A stretch of 64,000 nucleotides of DNA from Clostridia bacterium (lineage in GTDB: Bacteria > Bacillota > Clostridia > Oscillospirales > CAG-272): the NCBI GenBank assembly GCA_017453365.1, contig JAFTKH010000003.1, forward strand, positions 1,866 through 65,865, written 5' to 3'. Shown here piece after piece: positions 27,608 through 39,134 of the stretch (positions within the stretch are counted from its first letter, which is position 1; each line of letters starts with the position of its first letter). Made by a program: the position numbers and the translations under genes. The notes below the pieces were generated by a model, which had not been told where the DNA came from, did not search any database, and saw only the letters and a program-made list of their open reading frames with translations.

Positions 27608-27691
27608 CAGAGGTGGTAGTCACCTATCGGCAGCTCGTGTATAATATAGACTGGACTAAATTGGTCTAGGCTTAAATTGACAGGAGTAAAT

Positions 27692-29446
27692 ATGGACATT
27701 TTCGATATCCTTATGCTGATAGGCGGACTATGCCTCTTTCTTTATGGAATGAACGTAATGGGACAGGCCCTCGAGAGAAGCGCCGGCTCGAGCCTCGAGC
27801 GTATGCTCGCGAAGCTTACCTCAAATAAATTTGCGGGGCTTCTCACCGGTCTTGGCGTTACCGCGGTAATACAGTCGTCCTCTGCGACGACGGTAATGGT
27901 CGTCGGCTTCGTGAACTCGGGTCTTATGAACCTGCGTCAGGCGATACACGTTATAATGGGTGCCAATATCGGTACGACCGTTACCGCGTGGATACTCAGC
28001 CTTGGCGGCATCTCGGGTGACAGCATCTTTCTTCAGCTGCTGAAGCCCACGTCCTTCACTCCCATACTTGCACTTATGGGAATTATACTCTTTATGTTCT
28101 GTAAGAGTAAAAGAAAGAAGGATATCGGAGTAATACTCCTCGGCTTCGCCGTACTTATGTTCGGTATGGATACGATGACAGGCTCGGTATCGGGGCTTAA
28201 GGACGACCCCGCCTTTACCGAAATGTTCATTATGTTTAAAAATCCCATTCTCGGTGTCCTCGTCGGAGCAGTGCTCACTGCGATAATTCAGTCGTCTTCC
28301 GCCTCTGTCGGTATACTCCAGGCCCTCGCGGCAACGGGTGCCGTATCCTACGGAGCCGCCATCCCTATTATAATGGGACAGAATATCGGTACGTGCGTCA
28401 CGGCAATCATCTCGTCTGTAGGAACTAATAAGAATGCGAAGCGTGCGGCATACGTGCATCTTTCATTCAACATAATCGGTACTATTGTATGGCTTACCGC
28501 CTTTAGCATTGTTAACGCCATATTCTCACCCGCTCTCTTTAACGAGGCTGCAACGCTTTCGGGTATCGCGACGGCACACTCGCTCTTTAACCTCGCGTGC
28601 ACGGTACTTCTGTTCCCGATGTCGCGTCTGCTGGAGCTCCTTGCATATAAGCTTGTTCCGGATGCTAAAACGCCCGAGAAGGTTACCGTCCTTGATGAAA
28701 GGCTTCTAGCTACCCCCGCCGTAGCTCTTGAGAGATGCTATGAGCTCACGCGTGAAATGGCAGAGTGCTCCGCAAGGTCGCTTGAAGAAAGCATAGCTCA
28801 TTTCCGTTCCCAGGGCGATGCGGCTCTTGCCGCCTCAGTGAGGGAGAAGGAGAACGAAACCGACTCCTACGAGGATATGATAGGAAGCTATCTGGTTAAG
28901 CTTTCGAGTAACCAGATGAACGAGGAGGAGGCGACGATGTCCTCTATGCTTCTTAAGGTCATAGGTGACCTTGAGAGGATTTCCGACCACGCCGTGAATA
29001 TCGTCGAGTCCCGTGAGGAGCTTCTTGAAAAGGGAATATCCTTCTCCGACTCGGCGCTTTCCGAGATAAACAATATGTGCGATGCGACCCTCGAGATAGT
29101 AAATCTTTCTCTCTGCGCTTTTCTTAACGAGGATACCTCGCTCGCTCTTTCTGTCGAGCCCCTTGAGGAGGTCATTGACAGACTTAAGGAAACTCTCCGT
29201 ACCCAGCATATCGACAGACTCAGACAGGGTAATTGCAGCATCGAGGCAGGCTTTGTTTGGAGCGACCTTATCACCAATATGGAGAGGGTTTCCGACCATT
29301 GCTCGAATATAGCGGGCTGCGTTATAGATTTGAAGGAGAGAAACCTCTCTATCCACGAGTCCTTGAAGCTTATCAGAGGCGACGGAGAGGAATTTGAGGA
29401 GAAGTTCCGCGAATATGCGGCGAAATATATGAGCTTTATAGGTTAA
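27692..29446 (+). CDS. Na/Pi cotransporter family protein with C-terminal PhoU-like domains
   Basis: Duplicated TAVIQSSSATTV / TAIIQSSSASVG NptA repeats. The C-terminal helical PhoU-like repeats each contain ERISDH/ERVSDH. The ATG at 27692 follows AGGAG. Confidence 0.85.
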   Translation: MDIFDILMLIGGLCLFLYGMNVMGQALERSAGSSLERMLAKLTSNKFAGLLTGLGVTAVIQSSSATTVMVVGFVNSGLMNLRQAIHVIMGANIGTTVTAWILSLGGISGDSIFLQLLKPTSFTPILALMGIILFMFCKSKRKKDIGVILLGFAVLMFGMDTMTGSVSGLKDDPAFTEMFIMFKNPILGVLVGAVLTAIIQSSSASVGILQALAATGAVSYGAAIPIIMGQNIGTCVTAIISSVGTNKNAKRAAYVHLSFNIIGTIVWLTAFSIVNAIFSPALFNEAATLSGIATAHSLFNLACTVLLFPMSRLLELLAYKLVPDAKTPEKVTVLDERLLATPAVALERCYELTREMAECSARSLEESIAHFRSQGDAALAASVREKENETDSYEDMIGSYLVKLSSNQMNEEEATMSSMLLKVIGDLERISDHAVNIVESREELLEKGISFSDSALSEINNMCDATLEIVNLSLCAFLNEDTSLALSVEPLEEVIDRLKETLRTQHIDRLRQGNCSIEAGFVWSDLITNMERVSDHCSNIAGCVIDLKERNLSIHESLKLIRGDGEEFEEKFREYAAKYMSFIG

Positions 29447-29491
29447 ATTATAAGGGGCGGCGCGAAATTTTCGCACCTGCCTCTTTTGCGC

Positions 29492-29520
29492 TTGCAAAGC
29501 CGCCGCGAAAAATGTATAAT
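29492..29520 (+). promoter_or_regulatory. sigma-A type promoter for the two-component system
   Basis: TTGCAA, 17 nt spacer, TATAAT. Confidence 0.55.
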
Positions 29521-29550
29521 ATTAAGTAAGAAAAAAGAAAGGCAGATAAT

Positions 29551-30222
29551 ATGAATTTCGATACACTTATATATATCGTTGAGGACGACGAGGGAATAGG
29601 TGAGGTGTACCTCGGTGCTCTCGAGGACAGCTACAGGGTAGATATATTTGCCACCGGCGGAGAGTTCTTCACCGCATTTGATAAACGCAGACCCGACCTT
29701 ATCATTCTCGATATTATGCTACCGGATATGGACGGATATCAGATACTGTCACGCATAAGAGAGTGCGACGAGCGAGTACCTGTAATCATAGTCAGTGCGA
29801 AATCTGATGAGATAAGCTTTGTTAAGGGGCTCAACAGAGGAGCGGACGATTATATGGCGAAGCCCTTTTCCGTCCTCGAGCTGCTCGCGAGAGTGAAGGC
29901 GGGACTCCGCCGCGCAAACCTATATGTTAAAGTGGCGGGAAATTTTACCGTTGATAACAATACATACCGCGCCGCATGGCACGGGCAGGACCTTGGACTC
30001 ACCCTTAAGGAATTTAAGCTTTTGCGGATGCTTATCGGGCGCTCGGGAGTGACTGTCTCGCGTGAGGAGCTTTTCCGCGAGGTGTGGGGAGAGGAATTTA
30101 TGGGTGAGAGCCGTACTCTCGATATGCATATGGCGACGCTTCGCGAGAAGATAAGTACGCTTGGAGCCCCCGAATGCATAGTTACCGTCAGGGGAATAGG
30201 CTATAGGTTTGAGTCGGTATGA
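29551..30222 (+). CDS. OmpR/PhoB-family response regulator
   Basis: Receiver domain (DLIILDIMLPDMDG, ..SAKSD.., KPF) plus a winged-helix output domain (LTLKEFKLL...VRGIGYRF). Confidence 0.9.
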   Translation: MNFDTLIYIVEDDEGIGEVYLGALEDSYRVDIFATGGEFFTAFDKRRPDLIILDIMLPDMDGYQILSRIRECDERVPVIIVSAKSDEISFVKGLNRGADDYMAKPFSVLELLARVKAGLRRANLYVKVAGNFTVDNNTYRAAWHGQDLGLTLKEFKLLRMLIGRSGVTVSREELFREVWGEEFMGESRTLDMHMATLREKISTLGAPECIVTVRGIGYRFESV

Positions 30223-31925
30223 GAAGAAAAATTTTTGTCAGATGCTTTCTTATAGCCTTTTTGTCCGTATCCATACTTTTCTCCGCGGGAATAGCTACGA
30301 CCTACGTGAGTAATAAAAGTCTTGTTAAGGAGCGCCTCATTACGGAGACAAAGCTCGCCGTAGCGTTGCTTAACAGCGAGGATGACTTTGAAGAGCTTGA
30401 TATATTTATGAACAACGATGAGTGCCGTGTTACGATAATTACCCCCGACGGCGAGGTTTTGTATGACAGTGACACGACCCTCGAGCTTGAGAACCATATA
30501 GACCGTGAGGAGGTCGCGGCAGCACTCGCGGGAGAGCCCGTTGCCGTTGAGCGCTATTCCGAAACCTTCGGCTGCAATATGAATTATTACGCTATGCTGA
30601 CGTCGCTTGATGACGGCAGAGAGGTAATAGTGAGGCTCGCACTTAAAAATACAGAGATAAACTACTACATTTTATCGACTGTCCCCTTCCTGCTCCTTGC
30701 GCTGCTCGTATCCGCTTTTATCGCGGGCGTTTTCGCCCGAAGGCTGTCGGACAGCGTCGGCGAGCGGATATCCGATATAGGACGGAGCCTTAAGAGCTTA
30801 AATGACGGAGATTACGTACCTCTTGCGACCAATAGCTCCGATAGTGAGTTTTTCTCCGTATATAACGAGATAAACGAGCTGAATGAGAAGACCATAGGGA
30901 ATATCCTAAAAAGCGAGAGGGAAAAATGGCGGCTTAATGCAGTTATCGATAACGTGTCGCAGGGGATTATAGCTCTTTCCGGCGAGGAGAGAATACTTCT
31001 TGTAAACGGGAGCGCACTTGACTTGTTCGGGGTTGAGAGGTCGGTAATATCACTTAAGCTTGACAGCCTTATATCAGACAGTGGGCTCCTTATGAAGATT
31101 GAGAGGGCACTGTCTGCCCGTAACTCAAAATTTGAATATACATCCTCGGGCAGGACGGTAACCGTCGAGACCGTTACCCCCGCCGATTCGATGCTCGACG
31201 AAGAGATAAGCAGCATTATCATTATTTCCGACGTAACCTTTGAGAGGGAGTTGGGGAGACAGAAGGAAGAATTCTTTGCAAATGCCTCTCACGAGCTGAA
31301 AACACCGCTTACCGCTATGCGCGGACTTTCCGAGCTGCTCCTTGCGAAAAGCGAGGACAGCACAGACCGTCCGAAGCTTGAAAGAATACATAAGGAGTGC
31401 ATAAGGCTCTCCGATCTCATATCGGATATGCTGAAGTTGAGTCTTCTTGAAGCGCCGAAGGAGAGCGAGTCGGTATTTTCCGTAGATATGCACAGAATTG
31501 CCGAGGAAGCTATAGCGGAGCTCGCCTATGCAATGAAGGAGAAGGGTATCGCGTGCGAGCTCGTCGGCGACGCCGCCGTCTTGGCAGAGGAGAAGAAGAT
31601 GTACGAGCTTATGTGTAATCTTCTCTCGAACGCGGTTAACTATAACGTCGAGGGCGGCAGCATTACCGTGACGCTCGGTACTCGGGAGGATGAAGCCTAT
31701 CTTTCGGTACGCGACACGGGAATAGGTATCTCCCCCGAGCACATCCCTCACCTCTTCGAGAGATTTTACAGAGTGGATAAATCACGCTCGAAGAAGACAG
31801 GCGGTACAGGTCTTGGACTCGCTATAGTGAAGCACATATCGGCGCTCTTCGGCGGAAGGATAACCGTTGAGAGCGAGCCGGGTGAAGGAACGGAGATATG
31901 CATCTTTTTCAAAAAAGAAGCTTAA
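30219..31925 (+). CDS. sensor histidine kinase (PhoR-like: 2 TM, HAMP, PAS, HisKA, HATPase)
   Basis: H-box SHELKTPLTAM, N-box LLSNAVNY, G-boxes RDTGIGI and GGTGLGLAIVK. It overlaps the response regulator stop by 4 nt. Confidence 0.9.
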   Translation: MRRKIFVRCFLIAFLSVSILFSAGIATTYVSNKSLVKERLITETKLAVALLNSEDDFEELDIFMNNDECRVTIITPDGEVLYDSDTTLELENHIDREEVAAALAGEPVAVERYSETFGCNMNYYAMLTSLDDGREVIVRLALKNTEINYYILSTVPFLLLALLVSAFIAGVFARRLSDSVGERISDIGRSLKSLNDGDYVPLATNSSDSEFFSVYNEINELNEKTIGNILKSEREKWRLNAVIDNVSQGIIALSGEERILLVNGSALDLFGVERSVISLKLDSLISDSGLLMKIERALSARNSKFEYTSSGRTVTVETVTPADSMLDEEISSIIIISDVTFERELGRQKEEFFANASHELKTPLTAMRGLSELLLAKSEDSTDRPKLERIHKECIRLSDLISDMLKLSLLEAPKESESVFSVDMHRIAEEAIAELAYAMKEKGIACELVGDAAVLAEEKKMYELMCNLLSNAVNYNVEGGSITVTLGTREDEAYLSVRDTGIGISPEHIPHLFERFYRVDKSRSKKTGGTGLGLAIVKHISALFGGRITVESEPGEGTEICIFFKKEA

Positions 31926-31938
31926 TACCGAATAAAAC

Positions 31939-31987
31939 AAAAACCGGGACTTCATGGCACGGCTGTCACCCTGAAGCTCCGGTTTTT
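31939..31987. terminator. bidirectional terminator between the kinase gene and the convergent fibre-like operon
   Basis: aaaaaccgggacttca ... tgaagctccggttttt imperfect hairpin flanked by A/T runs. Confidence 0.6.
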
Positions 31988-31991
31988 GATT

Positions 31992-33134
31992 TTATTGTTC
32001 TGTAGCATAGGCACTGTATGCGCTTACGGCTTCTTCTATAGTCGCTCCCTTTGAGACAAGGTATCCGTTCGCATCGGGATAGTAGGCGTCTGCATCGTGT
32101 ACCCACGTTTCCGTATTGAAGGAGTCGCACGCAACTCCGCTGGAGAAGGTAGCGTAGTACGAGTTCGTATTTGCCTTGCCCTTATACATATCTCCGTACT
32201 GTGCCCATTTGCCGTCGCTGTCTTTAACGTAGACGATAGCATACACCGTGACGGTGACGGAGCTGTCACTGCCAAAAAATCCCGTTGTTCCCGTAATGGT
32301 ATCCGGTGTCATATACATAACCATTTCGTTTACGTCCGCAGCTCCGTTATAATCAAAAACGTCCTTTTCTTTTATCATAACGGTACATTCATTAGCAACA
32401 GTTCCGTTTAAGCTCACGTTTTTCAGCGTATCTCCGAATACGGATTTAATTAGTGTGGTATCGCTTGAGCTTGTATCTCCCGCGACGTTTCCGACGTAGT
32501 CTCCGCCGAACTTGTAGCCGCCTGCGTTTGAGCTCATTGCATCTTGTATATCAACGAGCACGTCCGGGTCGTTTAACGCTGTGAGGAAGGATTCCGATGC
32601 CTTGTTGACGACTGCCTCATCCTTATCCTCCTCACTCGCGAAGCCAAAATTGAACATCAGCGTAGCGGAAACCAGGCTTGCCCCCGTGTCCGTAGCCTTC
32701 AGCGTAACCGTTATGTCAGAGGTTACCGCTCCTGACGCGAGAGCCTCTTCTGCAGTAATTCCCGAAACGCCCTCGACGGCAAGTCCAGTATTCGTATCGG
32801 TACCCTCTACTGTTGGAGCAGTTACAGACTTGAAAACGAAATTCAGATCTGTATTGTTTCTCACGGTGACAGTGACGGTGACTGTATCTCCCTCCGAAAA
32901 ATCTGCCGTCAGAGAAAGAATACCCGCAGGCTCGGTCAGAGAGCTGTTACCGCCTCTGTAGCCGACGTCGCCCGAGGATATTTCGGCTGTAGCCACGTAG
33001 AGCCACGGCTCTACTCCCGTAAATACTCTTGAAGTCACATTAAGGGTATCGGAAAGGGTCGCGTACCCAACGCTAAGGAACGCGAGAACGAAAAAGAGCG
33101 CACAGAAAACAGTCATTTTAAAAGCTTTTTTCAT
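31992..33134 (-). CDS. secreted protein with SipW-type signal peptide (cargo 2, 380 aa)
   Basis: MKKAFKMTVFCALFFVLAFLSVGYATLSDTLNVT. The mature part is Thr/Val/Ser/Gly/Asp-rich with alternating beta-like stretches (TVTVTVTV). The ATG at 33134 has an AAGGAG RBS; the track ORF extends to 33191. Confidence 0.7.
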   Translation of the reverse strand: MKKAFKMTVFCALFFVLAFLSVGYATLSDTLNVTSRVFTGVEPWLYVATAEISSGDVGYRGGNSSLTEPAGILSLTADFSEGDTVTVTVTVRNNTDLNFVFKSVTAPTVEGTDTNTGLAVEGVSGITAEEALASGAVTSDITVTLKATDTGASLVSATLMFNFGFASEEDKDEAVVNKASESFLTALNDPDVLVDIQDAMSSNAGGYKFGGDYVGNVAGDTSSSDTTLIKSVFGDTLKNVSLNGTVANECTVMIKEKDVFDYNGAADVNEMVMYMTPDTITGTTGFFGSDSSVTVTVYAIVYVKDSDGKWAQYGDMYKGKANTNSYYATFSSGVACDSFNTETWVHDADAYYPDANGYLVSKGATIEEAVSAYSAYATEQ

Positions 33135-33246
33135 AGTGCGCTCTCCTTTTTTATTCTGTCTTGGGAAGGCGTTTTCTAGCCCTTCGTTCACTGTGACGAT
33201 TATAATTTTTAAGCGATGAGGTGCTCTTTTTCGTTAATTCTTCGGT

Positions 33247-35154
33247 TCACTCATCCCCGTCGGGGAGTACTGCGTCGCTCCGTTTGTGTCTTTTGTCACG
33301 GAGGAGCTCCTCTACGTCAGCCTTTTCTGTCGGCGTGTTCGCATCGAGTAATACGCCCGTCGGTGCTATTACCTTTATGAGCTCGCGCTCGATAAGCATC
33401 TCGGTGCTTTCGTACGGCAGTCGGTAGTCAACATTTGGAATATCGCTCTGCTTTATACCGAGGGCATTCATACATTCGTCAATAAGCAGATACGCCTGCT
33501 TCATCGATCGTTCTCCCTTTATCTTGAAGAGCATCGGCACCGTGTCGAGCTTCGGCTTATCTCCGACGTAGGAAACGCGATACTGCTCGTTGCTGTACTT
33601 TTCGGGATCGAGCGCGAGGTAAAGAAGGAGATACGAGCCCTTTACGTTAAGCTTTGCACAGCTTATGCGTCCGCGCTTGAAGGATTCGAAATTCAGACTT
33701 GTTCTTGCCTTCACACCCGAGAAGGAGAGAAGATAGTTTTTGATAAGGGAGTATTTTTCCTTGATCGTGTCCTCCGACTGTATCAGTCGGGACATAAACG
33801 ATGTGCGGTATCTTACCTCGACTGCCGCATCCTCCGTTACAGCAGGTATAGCTGCCTCATTTCGGGGAATCTTCCCTGTATCTGCCTCTGCGGTTGCGGA
33901 CTCTTCCGGCAAAGACTCCTCTCGGATACTCTCATCCGGTGCGGCTTCGGGGCTATCTCCTTCGGTGCCCTCGGGCGTTGCTTCCTCGTAAGCATCATAT
34001 TCCGCCGAGACCGTGAGCTCAGCGCAGTCGGGCGTGTTATCTGTTACCTCTTTGCTATCCTTGCCGACGCCGTAAAGCTCATCGTAGTTGTCCACCTTTA
34101 TCTCAAAAAGGTAGAGAAGCTTCGTCTGTGTGGGAATAAGGAATAGAGTTCTCGTTTCATCAGCATTCTCACTCATAAGTATCGGGGATTGTAAAGTATC
34201 GCGTATCCCGAGCATCTCGGGGAAGGTATCTATCTCGAGAACCTGATAGCCATTGGTGTCAAATTCGCCCTTCAGCTTCTGTATGTAGCTCTTATATGCT
34301 CCGAGAATACGCCTTATCTTGATCGAATAATTAATATCGTGGTTTCTCGTCAAGAAGATGAAGAAGAGCAGCACAATAAAGAGTATGAGTGAAAGGGAAA
34401 GACCACCGACAGCCGAATAGCCGAGTGCCGAGCGGCTGGCTAACGATTCGTCGCATATGAATACCTTTGCTTCACTGCCGGGGGCGGTTTCGGTGAGCGA
34501 CACGCTTACAGTTCTTTTCGTAAGAGGAACGGTAAGGGAGGTTGTATAGCTCATATTGCTGTCGCATCCGAGCTCCTCGGCGCTGCCTGTAACGTCGGTC
34601 TTCATAGTAACGGTAAGGCGCGGCGTCACGGAGGAAAGACCGTAGGTCTTGATGAAGCTCTCTGCTATTCCGTTGTACCTTCTGTAATCGATCTCGGTGC
34701 TGTCTGTTATTATGAGCTCGCCGCCCGTCGCGTACCCCTCCGTGTTTTCACGTATGACGTACTCAGGGGCGAATATTATCGCTTTAGTATCATTATCTGT
34801 AATTTCCAGGGTCGCGTATATACTGTAGGAGTATCGGTACTCCATTTTTTCTTCGTCTGTTCTTAGTACGTAGCTGAAATCAGCCTTAATGGTGTCTATT
34901 ATCGAGGCGACATAGGACTGTCCCTCTCCGAGCTCCTCCGCGTCGTAGAAATCGTTTTGAAGAAGCCTTACCGTGTAATCTATACCGCCCTTTTCGTAAT
35001 AGGGTATCTCGTGTGTGCTCTCGGCTCTGAAATAAAGTGCGCCGAGTGCCACGGAGAGAAGGAAAAATACCGTAAAGAGAGCGGTCAGGGCAGTTATCCA
35101 TTTTTTTCTGTTACGCTTGTAATTAAGCCTTTTTCTTCTTTCGGCTTCAGACAT
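33247..35154 (-). CDS. two-TM membrane protein (DUF5305-like N-terminal part, tentative) with an acidic linker and an extra C-terminal cytoplasmic domain
   Basis: In track numbering the layout runs as follows: basic N-terminus, TM residues 27-50, ectodomain of about 200 aa, TM residues 253-276, cytoplasmic region, Glu/Asp/Pro-rich linker residues 371-452, C-terminal domain of about 150 aa. Start ATG at 35154 (GGAGG 5 nt upstream), overlapping the peptidase stop. Confidence 0.65.
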   Translation of the reverse strand: MSEAERRKRLNYKRNRKKWITALTALFTVFFLLSVALGALYFRAESTHEIPYYEKGGIDYTVRLLQNDFYDAEELGEGQSYVASIIDTIKADFSYVLRTDEEKMEYRYSYSIYATLEITDNDTKAIIFAPEYVIRENTEGYATGGELIITDSTEIDYRRYNGIAESFIKTYGLSSVTPRLTVTMKTDVTGSAEELGCDSNMSYTTSLTVPLTKRTVSVSLTETAPGSEAKVFICDESLASRSALGYSAVGGLSLSLILFIVLLFFIFLTRNHDINYSIKIRRILGAYKSYIQKLKGEFDTNGYQVLEIDTFPEMLGIRDTLQSPILMSENADETRTLFLIPTQTKLLYLFEIKVDNYDELYGVGKDSKEVTDNTPDCAELTVSAEYDAYEEATPEGTEGDSPEAAPDESIREESLPEESATAEADTGKIPRNEAAIPAVTEDAAVEVRYRTSFMSRLIQSEDTIKEKYSLIKNYLLSFSGVKARTSLNFESFKRGRISCAKLNVKGSYLLLYLALDPEKYSNEQYRVSYVGDKPKLDTVPMLFKIKGERSMKQAYLLIDECMNALGIKQSDIPNVDYRLPYESTEMLIERELIKVIAPTGVLLDANTPTEKADVEELLRDKRHKRSDAVLPDGDE

Positions 35155-36283
35155 CACTGCCTCCTTTCCTGTCATCAAACAGTCGTGATAACCATACCGT
35201 AGGCCAGCCTACGTAGGGAATTTTGAATTTTACGGTACCGATTATTTCTTCTTCGGTAACGTATCCTGGATCTGCATCCTCGTTTGCATCCCCCTTTGTG
35301 TAAAACCGGTAGCTGCCGTTCGTGTATTCGAGGTCGTATACTCTGTGAACTACCCTAGAGCCGCCCTTTTCGAAAACTAATATATCCCCGACGGCGACCT
35401 CCTCGCCCCCCGAGTCCGTATATACCGTTACATCTCCGATATGTAGCTCACCCTCCATACTTCCTGAGCCTATGACTATTGCTCCGACGAAGAAGCGGCA
35501 GGAGGTCAGCATTATAAGCCCGATAAGGCAGATGAGGAGGGCAGCGAGAGATATCGGTCCGAGCTTCGTCCCTCTTTTTATGGCGTAGCTTCTTTTTTTC
35601 TCATACAGCGAGCTTATGAAGAGGTATGCGAGAAGGGGAAGTGTTATTCGTGCTGCGGCAACCAGTGCGGGTGCGGCGGTAGGAAGATAGGGAATAAAGT
35701 AAATGTAAATGGTTGTTGTCAGCTTATAGGTCAGGGCGGGTAGAAAGCCGTGCCTACGTGTTAAATAATTGAATAAAAGGTTTTGAGAAATCGACGGCGC
35801 CAGAGTTGCTCCGACGAGCTCAGTGAAGGCGTAGACACTGTTGATGGAGTCAGCCTCGCCCGAAAGCGTTACGTAGGTGAGTATTGCCCCTGCAGAGAAA
35901 ATCAGTGTCGCGGGCTTAGAGGACGCTCCCAGCACCAGGCCTCGTGTGTATTCTACTGACAGTATCACGGCGGAAAGCGGTAAAGCCCGCGTCAGGAGCT
36001 CGAGCGGAGTGTAGCTCGCCGTTTTACCTATACCGAAATAGAGTCCCGAAAGATAATAGAGCATTATCGCCGCCGCTGTACCGACGGATATGATAAGGAG
36101 CACCTGATTTTTATAGATCGACGGTACGCTCCGTTTTTTGATTAGAAAGCTTGCGAAGAGGGCAAGGATGGGGAGCAGGAGAGCAGCATATACCCGACTC
36201 CCCTCAGGAAACGCGAAAAGTAAAATGGGAAGGGCGAGCGCGAGGATAGAGACCGTATATAGTTTTTTTCTGTCCGCCGACAT
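35147..36283 (-). CDS. SipW/ER-archaeal-type signal peptidase I fused to an N-terminal domain of about eight TM helices
   Basis: C-terminal 120 aa carry GSGSMEG (Ser box), VVHRV (His box) and YTKGDANEDAD. They are preceded by about 240 aa of repeated hydrophobic helices. The RBS is AAGGAGGG. Confidence 0.75.
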   Translation of the reverse strand: MSADRKKLYTVSILALALPILLFAFPEGSRVYAALLLPILALFASFLIKKRSVPSIYKNQVLLIISVGTAAAIMLYYLSGLYFGIGKTASYTPLELLTRALPLSAVILSVEYTRGLVLGASSKPATLIFSAGAILTYVTLSGEADSINSVYAFTELVGATLAPSISQNLLFNYLTRRHGFLPALTYKLTTTIYIYFIPYLPTAAPALVAAARITLPLLAYLFISSLYEKKRSYAIKRGTKLGPISLAALLICLIGLIMLTSCRFFVGAIVIGSGSMEGELHIGDVTVYTDSGGEEVAVGDILVFEKGGSRVVHRVYDLEYTNGSYRFYTKGDANEDADPGYVTEEEIIGTVKFKIPYVGWPTVWLSRLFDDRKGGSDV

Positions 36284-36320
36284 TCTTCGCCCTCCTTATC
36301 TCGGCTTTTCTAAATGAAAT

Positions 36321-36866
36321 TTATGCGTTTGCGGTTATTGCGATGGTGAAGGTTTCCTCTGCCGCATCATTACCTGAGATATCGTTTGCCATAGTGATGG
36401 TGACGGTAAGAGTGGTCGTGCCCGTTTTAGGAGCGAGAGTCGTAGCGGCGAGCTCTGCAGTTGCTGTGAACGTGCTGTCAGTTCCCGCAGCAGTAACGGT
36501 AGGATTGCTGAGAGTTACCTCGAAATTACTTTCATTAACTACAGTGAACACGAGAATTATCTCGTCATTCTTCGTTGCGAGGAAGCCGTCAACATCGAGT
36601 ACTATTTCGTCGGTTCCCGTTCCGCTAACGGTGATAGCGTAGTCATCGTTCGAGGTGTCATCGCTCTTAACGTCGCTGACAGCGGCGCCGTTACGTGTAC
36701 CGGAGGTGATATTGTAGTCGCTTGCAAAGTATACATACGGGTCAAACGCGGGGGCGTTAGCTCCTGCTGTGACAGTGAGGTCGTCGGACAATGCTGCGTA
36801 TCCGATACCCAGCGTGAGTATTGCAACTACAAGGAATACGGCTACAACGGTTCTTCTCTTTTTCAT
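36321..36866 (-). CDS. small secreted protein with SipW-type signal peptide (cargo 1, 181 aa)
   Basis: MKKRRTVVAVFLVVAILTLGIGYAALSDDLTVT. The mature part is Thr/Ala/Val/Asp-rich with beta-like composition. AAGGAG RBS. Confidence 0.7.
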   Translation of the reverse strand: MKKRRTVVAVFLVVAILTLGIGYAALSDDLTVTAGANAPAFDPYVYFASDYNITSGTRNGAAVSDVKSDDTSNDDYAITVSGTGTDEIVLDVDGFLATKNDEIILVFTVVNESNFEVTLSNPTVTAAGTDSTFTATAELAATTLAPKTGTTTLTVTITMANDISGNDAAEETFTIAITANA

Positions 36867-36937
36867 TTTTCTTCTCCTTTCCGATATTTCTTTGGTAATT
36901 TATGCCAATTTTAAACTAAAATACCAAAAGATAGCTT

Positions 36938-36967
36938 ATAATAGCACAGTTTTGCACAAAATGTCAA
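36938..36967 (-). promoter_or_regulatory. promoter of the peptidase/cargo operon
   Basis: Minus strand reads TTGACA (36962..36967), 18 nt spacer, TATTAT (36938..36943). A TG lies two nt upstream of the -10, giving an extended -10. Confidence 0.5.
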
Positions 36968-36973
36968 GTGGCA

Positions 36974-37011
36974 CTTATCACAAATGATAATAAATAATCA
37001 TCCGTGATAAG
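36974..37011. promoter_or_regulatory. long inverted repeat, candidate operator of the divergent XRE regulator
   Basis: CTTATCACAAATGAT-aataaata-ATCATCCGTGATAAG, with 13 of 15 arm positions complementary. It lies 6 nt from the operon -35 and just upstream of a TACAAT for the XRE gene. Confidence 0.5.
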
Positions 37012-37059
37012 ATACAATATAAACAAAAAGAGTGCTTTTCTAAAGCGAAGGAGCGAGAA

Positions 37060-37359
37060 ATGGACAGTATTTCGGATAGAATAAGATATCTGCGTGATAA
37101 GGCAGGCTATACACAGACCTACCTTGCGAAGCGGCTCGGTATATCGAGAAGTGCCGTGAATTCGTGGGAAATGTCGCTTTCCTCTCCATCGGTTTCGAAC
37201 ATTATAGAGATGACGTCTCTTTTTAACGTGAGCGCAGATTATCTTCTATCTACCTCGGATAGACTCACCGTCGATATCACCGAGCTTGACAGTGAGGAAC
37301 GTGAGGTGGTTATCAGACTCGTGAACTGTCTTAAGGCTAATCACGCAGAAAAAAGGTGA
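37060..37359 (+). CDS. XRE-family HTH regulator (SinR-like size and position)
   Basis: IRYLRDKAGYTQTYLAKRLGISRSAVNSWE is a Cro/C1-type HTH. 99 aa, divergent from the peptidase operon. Confidence 0.8.
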   Translation: MDSISDRIRYLRDKAGYTQTYLAKRLGISRSAVNSWEMSLSSPSVSNIIEMTSLFNVSADYLLSTSDRLTVDITELDSEEREVVIRLVNCLKANHAEKR

Positions 37360-37456: not shown

Positions 37457-38242
37457 ATGCATTTAAGACCGAGCAGAGTATTAAGACAAATGAGAGCGGG
37501 TAAGGTTGCCGTTTCGACTAAGCTTAATCTCGACGACCCGAGAGCCGCAGAGATAGCCGCTATGTTCGGCTTCGACTGCATTTGGATAGACCTCGAGCAC
37601 GTTCCCTCGTCGATGGCGAACGTGGAGAATATGGTCAGAGCCGCAAAGATATACGACGTCGATATTATGACGAGAGTGTCGAAGGGCTCGTACAGCGATA
37701 TCGTCCGCCCTCTTGAGGCAGACTCGACGGGCGTTATGGTACCCCATCTTATGAGCCTCGAGGAAGCGAAGAAAATCGCATATTTCACGAAATTCCACCC
37801 AATTGGCAGACGCCCCATCGACGGCGGGAACGCCGACGGCAGATACTGTCTTGTCGGAGTTGAGGACTACATAACCGAGGCTAACCGAGAGCGCTTCACC
37901 GTTGTGCAGATAGAGGATCCGGAGCCCGTAGCCGAGCTTGAGGAAATCTGTCAGCTTCCCGGTATCGATATGATATTCTTCGGCCCTGCCGACTTCAGCC
38001 AGGGTATAGGATGCCCCGTCACCCCCACAGAGGAGGTGGACAGAGTACGCCGCCTTGTAGCAGCAACCTCGAGAAAGCACGGTAAGTTCGCAGGTACTGT
38101 AGGCACTGCCGCGAACTTCGATGAGCTCGTTGATATGGGTTATACCTTTATTAACGTCGGTGCTGACGTTATTGCCCTCGGCGATTACTACCGCGACCTT
38201 TTCCCGAAGGTAGCGGGCAGGAATATCAAGGAAGTTGAATAA
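37457..38242 (+). CDS. HpcH/HpaI family aldolase (2-keto-3-deoxy-sugar-acid aldolase-like)
   Basis: FGFDCIWIDLEHVP, TRVSKG, VMVPHL.S.EEA and FFGPADFS motifs are typical of HpcH/HpaI. Confidence 0.8.
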   Translation: MHLRPSRVLRQMRAGKVAVSTKLNLDDPRAAEIAAMFGFDCIWIDLEHVPSSMANVENMVRAAKIYDVDIMTRVSKGSYSDIVRPLEADSTGVMVPHLMSLEEAKKIAYFTKFHPIGRRPIDGGNADGRYCLVGVEDYITEANRERFTVVQIEDPEPVAELEEICQLPGIDMIFFGPADFSQGIGCPVTPTEEVDRVRRLVAATSRKHGKFAGTVGTAANFDELVDMGYTFINVGADVIALGDYYRDLFPKVAGRNIKEVE

Positions 38243-38249
38243 CCTTAAT

Positions 38250-39134
38250 ATGAGTGAGTATGTTTATCATTATTGTAAGCCGAAGGTTTTTAACAGCATT
38301 ATAAAATCTAAAAAAATATGGCTCTCGGATTTAAGAAAGAGCAACGACTACGAGGAGATAGGCGGTATGATGGCGCGCATCTTTGCAAAGCTGCCAGAGA
38401 TGCTCCGCCGCGAGCGTGACCTGTTCTTTTTAGGTAACAGAGAGCGCTATTACGCCTACGTAGCGAGCTTTGCGAGAGAGTATTGGGAGCGCGAAATATC
38501 CCCCGTCGCTCTTTGGATGGCTATGTGCTTCTCGCGTGCGGAAGACGATCTCTCGCAGTGGCGAGGATATACCGAGCGTGCGACGGGCTTCGCGATAGGA
38601 GTCAAAGTTGCTGACGCCACACGCGAGATAACCCGTATAAATCATAGACTGATAAAGCTTAAGGAGATAGTCTACGATGAAGCCGAGCACGAGCGCTACT
38701 CCGAGGAAGCTATAGGCCGACTTATCGAGGCTATCCGCCTGTCGGAGGGAAAGACGGAAGAGAATATAGAGCTTAAAATACGTGCTATCGTGAAGCGCTG
38801 GTTTGCGCAGCTCGTTCTCGAGCTCGCATACTTTAAAAATCCAAGCTTTGAGGCCGAGGAAGAGGTCAGACTCTGCTACTCCCGTGTCATAAAAATTCAA
38901 CAGCTCGTCAACAGGAGCGAGGGCTCTACCTTAAATTATCTCGGTTACGACGTTACAGAAAACGACGTTGTAGCTCATCTTGAGGTAAACTATCCGCTCG
39001 AGCTTATATCGCGCATAATCATAGGGCCTATGAACCGCGCGACGCCCAACGACATAAAAATGCTCCTCGCTGTAAACGGCTTCAATACCGAGAATATAGA
39101 GGTAGTGAAATCACGCTCTACCTACAGAGGATAA
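38250..39134 (+). CDS. DUF2971 family protein
   Basis: The YVYHYCKPKVFNSIIKSKKIWLSDLRKSNDYEE opening matches the DUF2971 N-terminal signature as I remember it. The track ORF begins at a TTG at 38235, overlapping the aldolase stop. Confidence 0.55.
   Translation: MSEYVYHYCKPKVFNSIIKSKKIWLSDLRKSNDYEEIGGMMARIFAKLPEMLRRERDLFFLGNRERYYAYVASFAREYWEREISPVALWMAMCFSRAEDDLSQWRGYTERATGFAIGVKVADATREITRINHRLIKLKEIVYDEAEHERYSEEAIGRLIEAIRLSEGKTEENIELKIRAIVKRWFAQLVLELAYFKNPSFEAEEEVRLCYSRVIKIQQLVNRSEGSTLNYLGYDVTENDVVAHLEVNYPLELISRIIIGPMNRATPNDIKMLLAVNGFNTENIEVVKSRSTYRG

Follow-up and report, generated by a model that had tools for sequence, protein, structure and literature searches.

The 64,000-nucleotide stretch of Clostridia bacterium DNA analysed here (GenBank assembly GCA_017453365.1, contig JAFTKH010000003.1, positions 1,866 to 65,865 of the forward strand; hereafter the window) carries a four-gene minus-strand operon that encodes (i) c181, a small secreted protein, (ii) pep378, a signal peptidase I fused to a polytopic membrane domain, (iii) a membrane protein of the DUF5305 family, and (iv) c380, a large secreted protein. 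By analogy with characterised systems, this operon probably builds an extracellular donor-strand protein fibre, either a bundling pilus or a matrix fibre, of the TasA, AbpX, and Tat-fimbriae (Tafi) kind, a reading to which a probability of about 0.7 is assigned.

In the proposed mechanism, the precursors of c181 and c380 would be exported via the Sec pathway and cut after a G-Y-A motif by the private peptidase with DUF5305 as its accessory subunit, which would expose a conserved N-terminal segment. This segment would act as a donor strand that enters the incomplete β-sandwich of the next subunit, and c181, which may be the major subunit of the fibre, would thereby polymerise extracellularly in a head-to-tail fashion. 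The second secreted protein, c380, may be a minor subunit, a tip, or a nucleator, and would join either as a tip/adhesin or as a TapA-like nucleator or anchor. pep378 and the DUF5305 protein would make up a processing complex and possibly an assembly complex. Divalent cations may take part, as in AbpX, a suggestion based on the acidic composition of the subunits.

Both secreted families share a signal end and the residues that follow it. The common motif, (V/I)G(Y/F)A↓A-L-(T/S)-D-x-L-x-I-x-G-x-A (the arrow marks the cleavage site, predicted for these families), was read from 206 small and 48 large subunits, with the G and A of the signal end present in 100% of them. In the c181 family, which has more than 1077 members, the frequencies (n = 206) are 100% for G at −3, 94% for Y at −2, and 100% for A at −1, followed by A1 (93%), L2 (82%), D4 (83%), L6 (95%), I/V8 (92%), G10 (93%), and A12 (79%). 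In the large-subunit family (n = 48), the acidic position 4 is D in 70% and position 2 is Leu in 66%, and aromatic residues occupy position 2 in at most 4% of either family. When all six frames of the window were searched, the combined signal and post-cleavage motif occurred in the c181 and c380 genes only. Cleavage of c181 after G-Y-A is a prediction, the position being taken from the analogy with TasA, which is cut in the context TWA↓AFND, and with AbpX (TYA↓QWSE).

The likeness of the two secreted proteins extends past this segment. c380 consists of a signal peptide (residues 1–25, ending in SVGYA), a donor-strand-like segment TLSDTLNVTSRV, a c181-like β-sandwich module that runs to about residue 165, and a C-terminal domain of about 215 residues. 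Comparison of the two families with hhalign gives a probability of 98.7% and an E-value of 1.6e-16 over 146 columns; since this homology spans the first ~150 residues of the c380 family and the entire c181 family, the protein is best described as a c181-like module joined to a conserved C-terminal domain. The latter has no PDB or Pfam match, and a PDB profile search with the c380 family came back empty. Both mature proteins, as computed from the predicted cleavage, are very acidic: c181 (about 157 residues) has an isoelectric point (pI) of 4.05 and 14.6% Asp+Glu, and c380 has a pI of 4.05 and 13.8% Asp+Glu.

The four genes, treated in a preliminary description of this DNA as one system, do co-occur elsewhere. 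A scan of species-representative genomes, run with a 10-sequence alignment, found relatives in at least 527 species genomes, and the best 80 loci were examined. Gene order is conserved in about 80 of these 80: the peptidase is immediately preceded by a c181 homologue in 73 and immediately followed by a DUF5305 gene in 79, and a c380 homologue comes after DUF5305 in 47, as detected by single-sequence search. Of the 62 loci whose flanks are long enough, about 54 have at least two GYA-type proteins by a signal-motif search, usually with the small one upstream and the large one downstream. More distant cassettes, among them L081, L082, and L083, retain the core order subunit(s)–peptidase–DUF5305, with PF17231 matches on the peptidase neighbours in these three and two small subunits in L083. 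Their subunits read VGFA↓AFSATL or SYA↓TLSQVL, and Phe at position 2 is found in the more distant cassettes.

Almost all of the loci examined (78 of 80) are labelled as Clostridia, uncultured and from gut or rumen, including Oscillospiraceae, Acutalibacteraceae, Faecousia, Candidatus Scatosoma, and Lachnospiraceae. The other two are labelled Bacilli (L055) and Candidatus Saccharibacteria (L079), labels that could reflect binning error or horizontal transfer. Several metagenome-assembled genomes hold two copies of the cassette, either tail to tail (L001) or as pairs on one contig or on separate contigs (L002 with L022, L015 with L044, and L047 with L071).

By its sequence matches, pep378 is an endoplasmic reticulum (ER)/archaeal signal peptidase I of the SipW/Sec11 type (MEROPS S26B). 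Residues 248–365 match NCBIfam TIGR02228 with 85.5 bits (cutoff 51.85), in agreement with the SipW/ER-archaeal domain that the preliminary description had placed at the end of this protein. The score against Pfam Peptidase_S26 is 21.3, just below the cutoff of 22.9, and the protein stays below the Bacillus SipW equivalog NF046067 (48.7 bits; cutoff 190). Its catalytic pair is of the Ser/His rather than the Ser/Lys type. Proper alignment with 24 diverse homologues, down to 25% identity, shows that the catalytic Ser and His are indeed retained, with S275 (in GSxSM), H313 (VHR), and the GDN-box residues D332 and D338 (TKGDANEDxD) all invariant. Nine hydrophobic segments precede the catalytic domain, the ninth being its anchor; given these nine segments and a basic N-terminus inside, the active site would lie on the outer side of the membrane.

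The membrane domain that makes up the remainder of pep378 has no match in Pfam and none in the PDB by profile search. Two residues within its fourth hydrophobic segment, E111 and R114, are invariant in all aligned homologues, which hints at a functional site in this domain. A search for the domain among 1.84 billion representative proteins returned 406 clusters, and because all full-length matches are about 370–385 residues long, it occurs only in fusion with the peptidase. At least 139 homologues of about 375 residues are present in the protein collection, all with identical architecture; the window's own copy is MBQ7362962.1. The E-x-x-R motif had suggested a CPBP/Abi-type intramembrane protease, a candidate that was rejected on the lack of conserved histidines and of a Pfam match.

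The third gene encodes a protein that matches Pfam PF17231 with 37.8 bits (cutoff 29) over residues 139–338 of its 643-residue reading, which turns the earlier guess of a DUF5305 protein into an assignment. Its layout comprises a basic N-terminus, a transmembrane (TM) helix, an ectodomain of about 205 residues, a second TM helix, and a long cytoplasmic tail, with hydrophobic segments at residues 30–48 and 257–275. The gene is translationally coupled to that of pep378, and the product is a putative signal-peptidase accessory or assembly factor, by comparison with the role proposed for DUF5305 proteins elsewhere (PMC11821415, bioRxiv 10.64898/2026.01.04.697558). At its end, the cytoplasmic tail carries an extra module that is present in 19 of the 80 loci, at times as two tandem copies (carriers include L004, L011, L015, L026, and L068). 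This module has neither a Pfam match nor a PDB match by profile search and, judged by its distribution, is an optional accessory domain.

The four genes form a real operon. Their open reading frames (ORFs), the spacing between them (37 nt, an 8-nt overlap, and 112 nt, in order), and the terminator given in the preliminary description were all verified, and the arrangement is not due to chance, since gene order and strand are the same in nearly all of the 80 related loci. The 8-nt overlap between the DUF5305 gene start and the peptidase stop reads ATGTCTGA. All four genes have good Shine-Dalgarno sites at the starts given in the preliminary description. Among the three downstream genes, the pep378 ATG at 36283 is preceded by AAGGAGG, the DUF5305 ATG at 35154 has the ribosome-binding site AAAGGAGG 5 nt upstream, and the c380 ATG at 33134 is preceded by AAGGAGAG. 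The mechanical ORF list also offers longer alternative starts for the DUF5305 gene (TTG 35178) and for c380 (GTG 33191).

Base composition is uniform over the block. The putative operon promoter is a strong promoter-like site upstream of c181, judged by its consensus match. At the other end, the terminator hairpin, whose stability none of 200 shuffles reached, serves both the operon and a convergent histidine-kinase gene with its end at 31925; a simple terminator scan overlooked it because its stem is bulged. A perfect TATAAT hexamer (33199..33204, minus strand) lies in the 112-nt gap before c380 with no convincing −35 element and could be a weak internal promoter for that gene. The table collects the features of the locus.

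Table. Features of the operon and its surroundings, in window coordinates.
Feature	Position	Strand	Basis or remark
Promoter-like site, TTGACA-18 nt-TATTAT with TG extension	36938..36967	-	11/12 consensus matches; upstream of c181 gene
c181, secreted small subunit (putative), 181 residues	36321..36866	-	ORF; family homologues
c181 signal peptide, residues 1-24 (MKKRR, hydrophobic stretch, LGIGYA)	36795..36866	-	
c181 N-terminal extension after the predicted cleavage site, ALSDDLTVTAGANAPA (putative donor strand)	36747..36794	-	
pep378, fused polytopic signal peptidase I, 378 residues	35147..36283	-	TIGR02228 match and homologues
pep378 N-terminal membrane domain, residues 1-245, eight hydrophobic segments	35549..36283	-	hydropathy
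pep378 E111..R114 codons	35942..35953	-	
pep378 anchor helix and ER/archaeal-type signal peptidase I catalytic domain, residues 246-378	35150..35548	-	TIGR02228
pep378 Ser275	35459..35461	-	
pep378 His313	35345..35347	-	
DUF5305 two-TM membrane protein, 635 residues	33247..35154	-	PF17231
DUF5305 extra cytoplasmic C-terminal module, ~180 residues, after acidic low-complexity linker	33250..33798	-	
c380, secreted large subunit (putative), 380 residues	31992..33134	-	ORF; motif; hhalign
Intrinsic terminator hairpin with U-rich tail	about 31934..31990	-	-26.8 kcal/mol, z = -6.5
XRE-family helix-turn-helix gene, divergent, 99 residues	37060..37359	+	HTH_3, E 1.2e-15
Na/Pi-cotransporter-PhoU fusion gene, then OmpR-type response regulator and PAS histidine kinase	27677..31925	+	convergent with operon

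Several results on the subunits weigh against the fibre reading, and neither sequence nor fold comparisons assign their core to the TasA superfamily. (i) Neither c181 nor c380 matches Peptidase_M73 in Pfam, or TIGR04088 or any other NCBIfam model, at E ≤ 0.1, and none of 73 small and 48 large subunits matches Peptidase_M73 even at E ≤ 1. (ii) The weak Pfam matches obtained favour immunoglobulin (Ig)-like sandwiches of the DUF11/CARDB/Fn3_5 type over a TasA jelly roll. (iii) A profile of 73 c181-family members searched against the PDB returned no TasA, AbpA, or thread protein, only weak Fn3-like C5a peptidase domains. (iv) Between the mature regions of the c181 family and AbpX, hhalign scores 15.1 against 10.9 ± 2.0 for 100 shuffles (maximum 17.4), a comparison of low sensitivity because it used a single AbpX sequence. 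(v) A Foldseek search of the PDB with the c181 model found nothing at E < 1e-3 (best 6e-3), and adaptin-ear Ig-like domains score on par with pilins. (vi) At position 2, the putative donor strand has Leu (82%) where AbpX and TasA conserve an aromatic residue. (vii) No LPXTG or SLH cell-wall anchor was seen in the window.

The first of these points agrees with the earlier remark that the cargos are not recognisable TasA/camelysin proteins; DUF1102 and the other Pfam and NCBIfam families likewise failed to match either cargo. The Ig-like matches under (ii) come from per-member Pfam scans of the same 73 small and 48 large subunits and comprise DUF7507, fn3_5, DUF11, and CARDB, all weak. With signal peptides included, the full-length c181 family does align to AbpX (hhalign probability 75%, E 2.5e-5), but no homology of the cores is claimed because significance vanished when mature sequences were compared with shuffles. 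Bridging through the subunits of L081 and L083 reached the c181 family (E about 8e-4) and gave nothing to AbpX. Even within the cassettes, subunits that accompany clearly homologous peptidases scarcely recognise one another. Because both these subunits and the structural genes of Tafi diverge fast, the lack of a detected kinship with AbpX or TasA is weak evidence against common ancestry and no evidence for it.

Structure prediction also gives points in favour of the fibre reading. A first AlphaFold2 model of c181, built from 14 sequences, was too poor to use (predicted local distance difference test, pLDDT, 64.6) and gave generic Foldseek matches; a second, built from 134 sequences, is a β-sandwich with a pLDDT of 77.3. 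In this monomer, the conserved residues 25–44 are coil, and the AbpX donor strand is likewise unstructured in monomer predictions (bioRxiv 10.64898/2026.01.04.697558). The weak top 50 Foldseek matches to the second model include five donor-strand polymers, namely CfaB, FimG, the PapG pilin domain, the TasA fibre 8AUR (E 0.049, TM-score 0.28), and the archaeal thread Saci_0406, 7PNB (E 0.073, TM-score 0.41). The AbpX entries 9SJ2 and 9RHP are not among the matches.

The same observations bear on a second explanation, in which the peptidase is dedicated to sorting or maturing surface proteins that do not polymerise, G-Y-A↓A-L-S-D is only a recognition tag for the peptidase and DUF5305, much as in other systems of cognate signals and peptidases, and c181 and c380 are monomeric adhesins, binding proteins, or coat components. 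Such a role would fit a motif conserved in two otherwise different proteins, subunit cores that resemble common Ig-like surface domains (DUF11, CARDB, and Fn3_5), and the lack of a significant fold match to any fibre subunit. It is nonetheless unlikely. The specificity of type I signal peptidases resides mainly at −3 and −1, and the stretch conserved here far exceeds their needs, as it runs 12–14 residues beyond the cleavage site with a strictly alternating hydrophobic pattern (positions 2, 6, 8, 12, and 14). That segment is unstructured in the c181 monomer model, and the characterised systems that combine DUF5305 with a dedicated SipW-type peptidase all make donor-strand fibres.

That both acidic proteins assemble after processing into a spore-associated or surface-layer (S-layer)-like two-dimensional coat is very unlikely. 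Acidic subunits are common among S-layer proteins, TasA was first found in association with spores, and one distant locus adjoins cotJB/cotJC-like genes. However, Pfam and NCBIfam scans of the cassette found no SLH, cell-wall-binding, or sporulation-specific domains, a mature subunit of 157 residues is small for an S-layer protein, and the neighbourhood census of related loci turned up no recurrent spore or S-layer genes. The surface-layer alternative raised in the preliminary description gained no specific support. Pili that are type IV pilin-like (class III signal) or sortase-dependent, both of which would yield Gram-positive surface filaments from small subunits with conserved N-termini, are effectively refuted by signal layout and gene content: the leader is of class I (basic n-region, an 18-residue hydrophobic stretch, and small residues at −3 and −1), there is no prepilin layout (G↓F-x-x-x-E before a hydrophobic helix), no prepilin peptidase, ATPase, sortase, or LPXTG occurs in the cassette or its recurrent neighbours, and the signal peptidase encoded here is of type I.

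If the donor-strand fibre reading is true, the uncultured Clostridia of gut and rumen include hundreds of species that make an as yet unseen extracellular donor-strand fibre, with candidate roles in attachment to plant particles, mucus, or other cells and in biofilm cohesion. A more far-reaching version is doubtful, in which the pep378 membrane domain, with its invariant E111 and R114, and DUF5305, with its variable cytoplasmic modules, would form a membrane assembly machine, and not just a processing enzyme, that retains the cleaved subunit and couples signal removal to donor-strand insertion, a Gram-positive/archaeal counterpart of the chaperone–usher pathway that receives cytoplasmic input via DUF5305, and in which the fibre would be a widespread adhesion/biofilm organelle of gut Oscillospiraceae-type Clostridia. 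The system bears on a question raised by the work on Tafi and AbpX, namely the role of DUF5305 and of the extra peptidase membrane domain. Here, the enzyme and that domain always come as a fusion, and the domain's two invariant intramembrane charged residues are open to mutation. With four genes between one promoter-like site and one terminator, the operon is also compact, which would make heterologous reconstitution practical.

The divergent XRE-family gene does not hold the place that the preliminary description had given it as a SinR-like part of the system. Its product scores 15.6 bits against the model of the SinR paralogue SlrR (cutoff 250), its best NCBIfam match is the RstR family, below cutoff, and an XRE homologue lies near the cassette in only 5 of the 80 loci. 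It is possibly a local regulator at most and not a conserved component. Another 10–12 related loci have a LytS-type histidine kinase (PF06580 with HATPase_c) and a response regulator upstream on the same strand (e.g., L027:6157-6960 and L029:5072-6367). Given the LytS-type pair in those loci and the divergent XRE gene in the window, regulation of the cassette appears to be exchanged between lineages.

The convergent genes beyond the terminator seem to make up a unit of their own, related to phosphate and not to the cassette. Their two-component pair (29551..31925) is treated as unrelated because its neighbour is the Na/Pi-cotransporter/PhoU gene and because the pair is not conserved alongside the cassette. 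On the other side, just past the XRE gene, an HpcH/HpaI aldolase-like gene (37457..38242, plus strand) extends into the beginning of a DUF2971 gene (38235..39134, plus strand).

The AbpX loci are among the closest known systems. AbpX of Pyrodictium abyssi polymerises via calcium-dependent donor-strand complementation, and AbpX-like loci are reported from Archaea, Bacillota, and Chloroflexota, with genes for AbpX-like minor subunits, tip proteins, a dedicated ten-TM signal peptidase I, and a DUF5305 "accessory" protein with an extracellular β-sandwich, two TM helices, and a cytoplasmic domain (bioRxiv 10.64898/2026.01.04.697558). The same list of parts, i.e., a small acidic subunit, minor/tip subunits, a many-TM signal peptidase I, and DUF5305, is found in the present operon. 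AbpX homologues have a pI of about 4 and about 15% acidic residues (bioRxiv 10.64898/2026.01.04.697558), values that mature c181 and c380 match. The AbpX precursor, ...AIGLTYA↓QWSETLSLSATIS (supplement of bioRxiv 10.64898/2026.01.04.697558), aligns residue for residue with c181, ...TLGIGYA↓ALSDDLTVTAGAN; in TYA↓QWSETLSLSA and GYA↓ALSDDLTVTA, the latter with its cleavage site assumed, position 4 is acidic and positions 2, 6, and 8 are hydrophobic.

The differences from AbpX are equally distinct. With the signal peptide taken away, the c181 core is not significantly similar to AbpX in sequence, Leu takes the place of the aromatic "clamp" residue at position 2, and the present system has no LPXTG/SLH anchor, sortase, or c-di-GMP genes. 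In addition, the C-terminal domain of c380 and the cytoplasmic module of DUF5305 match nothing known, and the present family is confined to uncultured gut Clostridia. It was probably missed by the BLAST-based family definition of the AbpX study.

In the Tat-fimbriae cluster of Haloarcula hispanica, deletion of the multi-TM signal peptidase TafD blocks both TafA processing and fibre formation (PMC11821415). TafG, a DUF5305 protein, is the proposed helper of TafD, and fusions of DUF5305 with the peptidase are known in some bacteria (PMC11821415, PMC12337348). The structural genes of Tafi diverge fast while the enzymes are conserved (PMC12337348). As in Tafi, with its donor-strand subunits TafA and TafE, the operon encodes a dedicated multi-TM S26-type peptidase together with DUF5305 and several subunits. 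Unlike it, the present system is not archaeal and would use Sec rather than the Tat signals of haloarchaea. TafD has four TM helices, an N-terminal catalytic domain, and an extra C-terminal domain, whereas the extra membrane domain of pep378 is N-terminal, and the Tafi regulator is the Lrp-like TafB.

A private ER/archaeal-type Ser/His peptidase encoded among secreted proteins also links the operon to B. subtilis tapA-sipW-tasA and C. perfringens sipW-bsaA. By eye, the TasA cleavage context A↓A-F-N-D resembles the A↓A-L-S-D found here. TasA polymerises via N-terminal donor-strand exchange (PMC9674648), and TapA, whose N-terminus is donor-strand-like, serves as nucleator or anchor of the fibre (PMC10151520). 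SipW, by comparison, is about 190 residues long with one or two TM helices, whereas pep378 has 378 residues and falls well short of the SipW model (48.7 bits vs 190). The tapA operon lacks DUF5305, and the present system lacks a SinR/SinI module and cargos that match Peptidase_M73 or TIGR04088. BsaA differs further in its intermolecular isopeptide bonds, of which the present system gives no evidence.

The chaperone–usher pilins (CfaB, FimG, and the PapG pilin domain), incomplete Ig-like sandwiches that are completed by the N-terminal strand of a neighbour, rank at the top when the c181 model is searched with Foldseek, albeit with weak matches (E about 6e-3 to 5e-2, TM-score about 0.25–0.3). 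They are Gram-negative and depend on a chaperone in the periplasm and an usher in the outer membrane, neither of which is present here.

Taken together, these comparisons suggest that the present system works like the AbpX and Tafi systems, while the comparison of mature sequences does not support membership in the AbpX sequence family. Relative to tapA-sipW-tasA, it is a clear variant, with a fused polytopic peptidase, DUF5305, non-TasA cargos, and no SinR. The preliminary description had called it an uncharacterised variant, which is right for the family but not for the kind of system, since the combination of a many-TM peptidase, DUF5305, and donor-strand subunits has already been described (PMC11821415, PMC12337348, bioRxiv 10.64898/2026.01.04.697558). 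The operon extends a known theme, and what it adds to the AbpX and Tafi descriptions of 2025–2026, which already established the general architecture, is a very large family in gut Clostridia.

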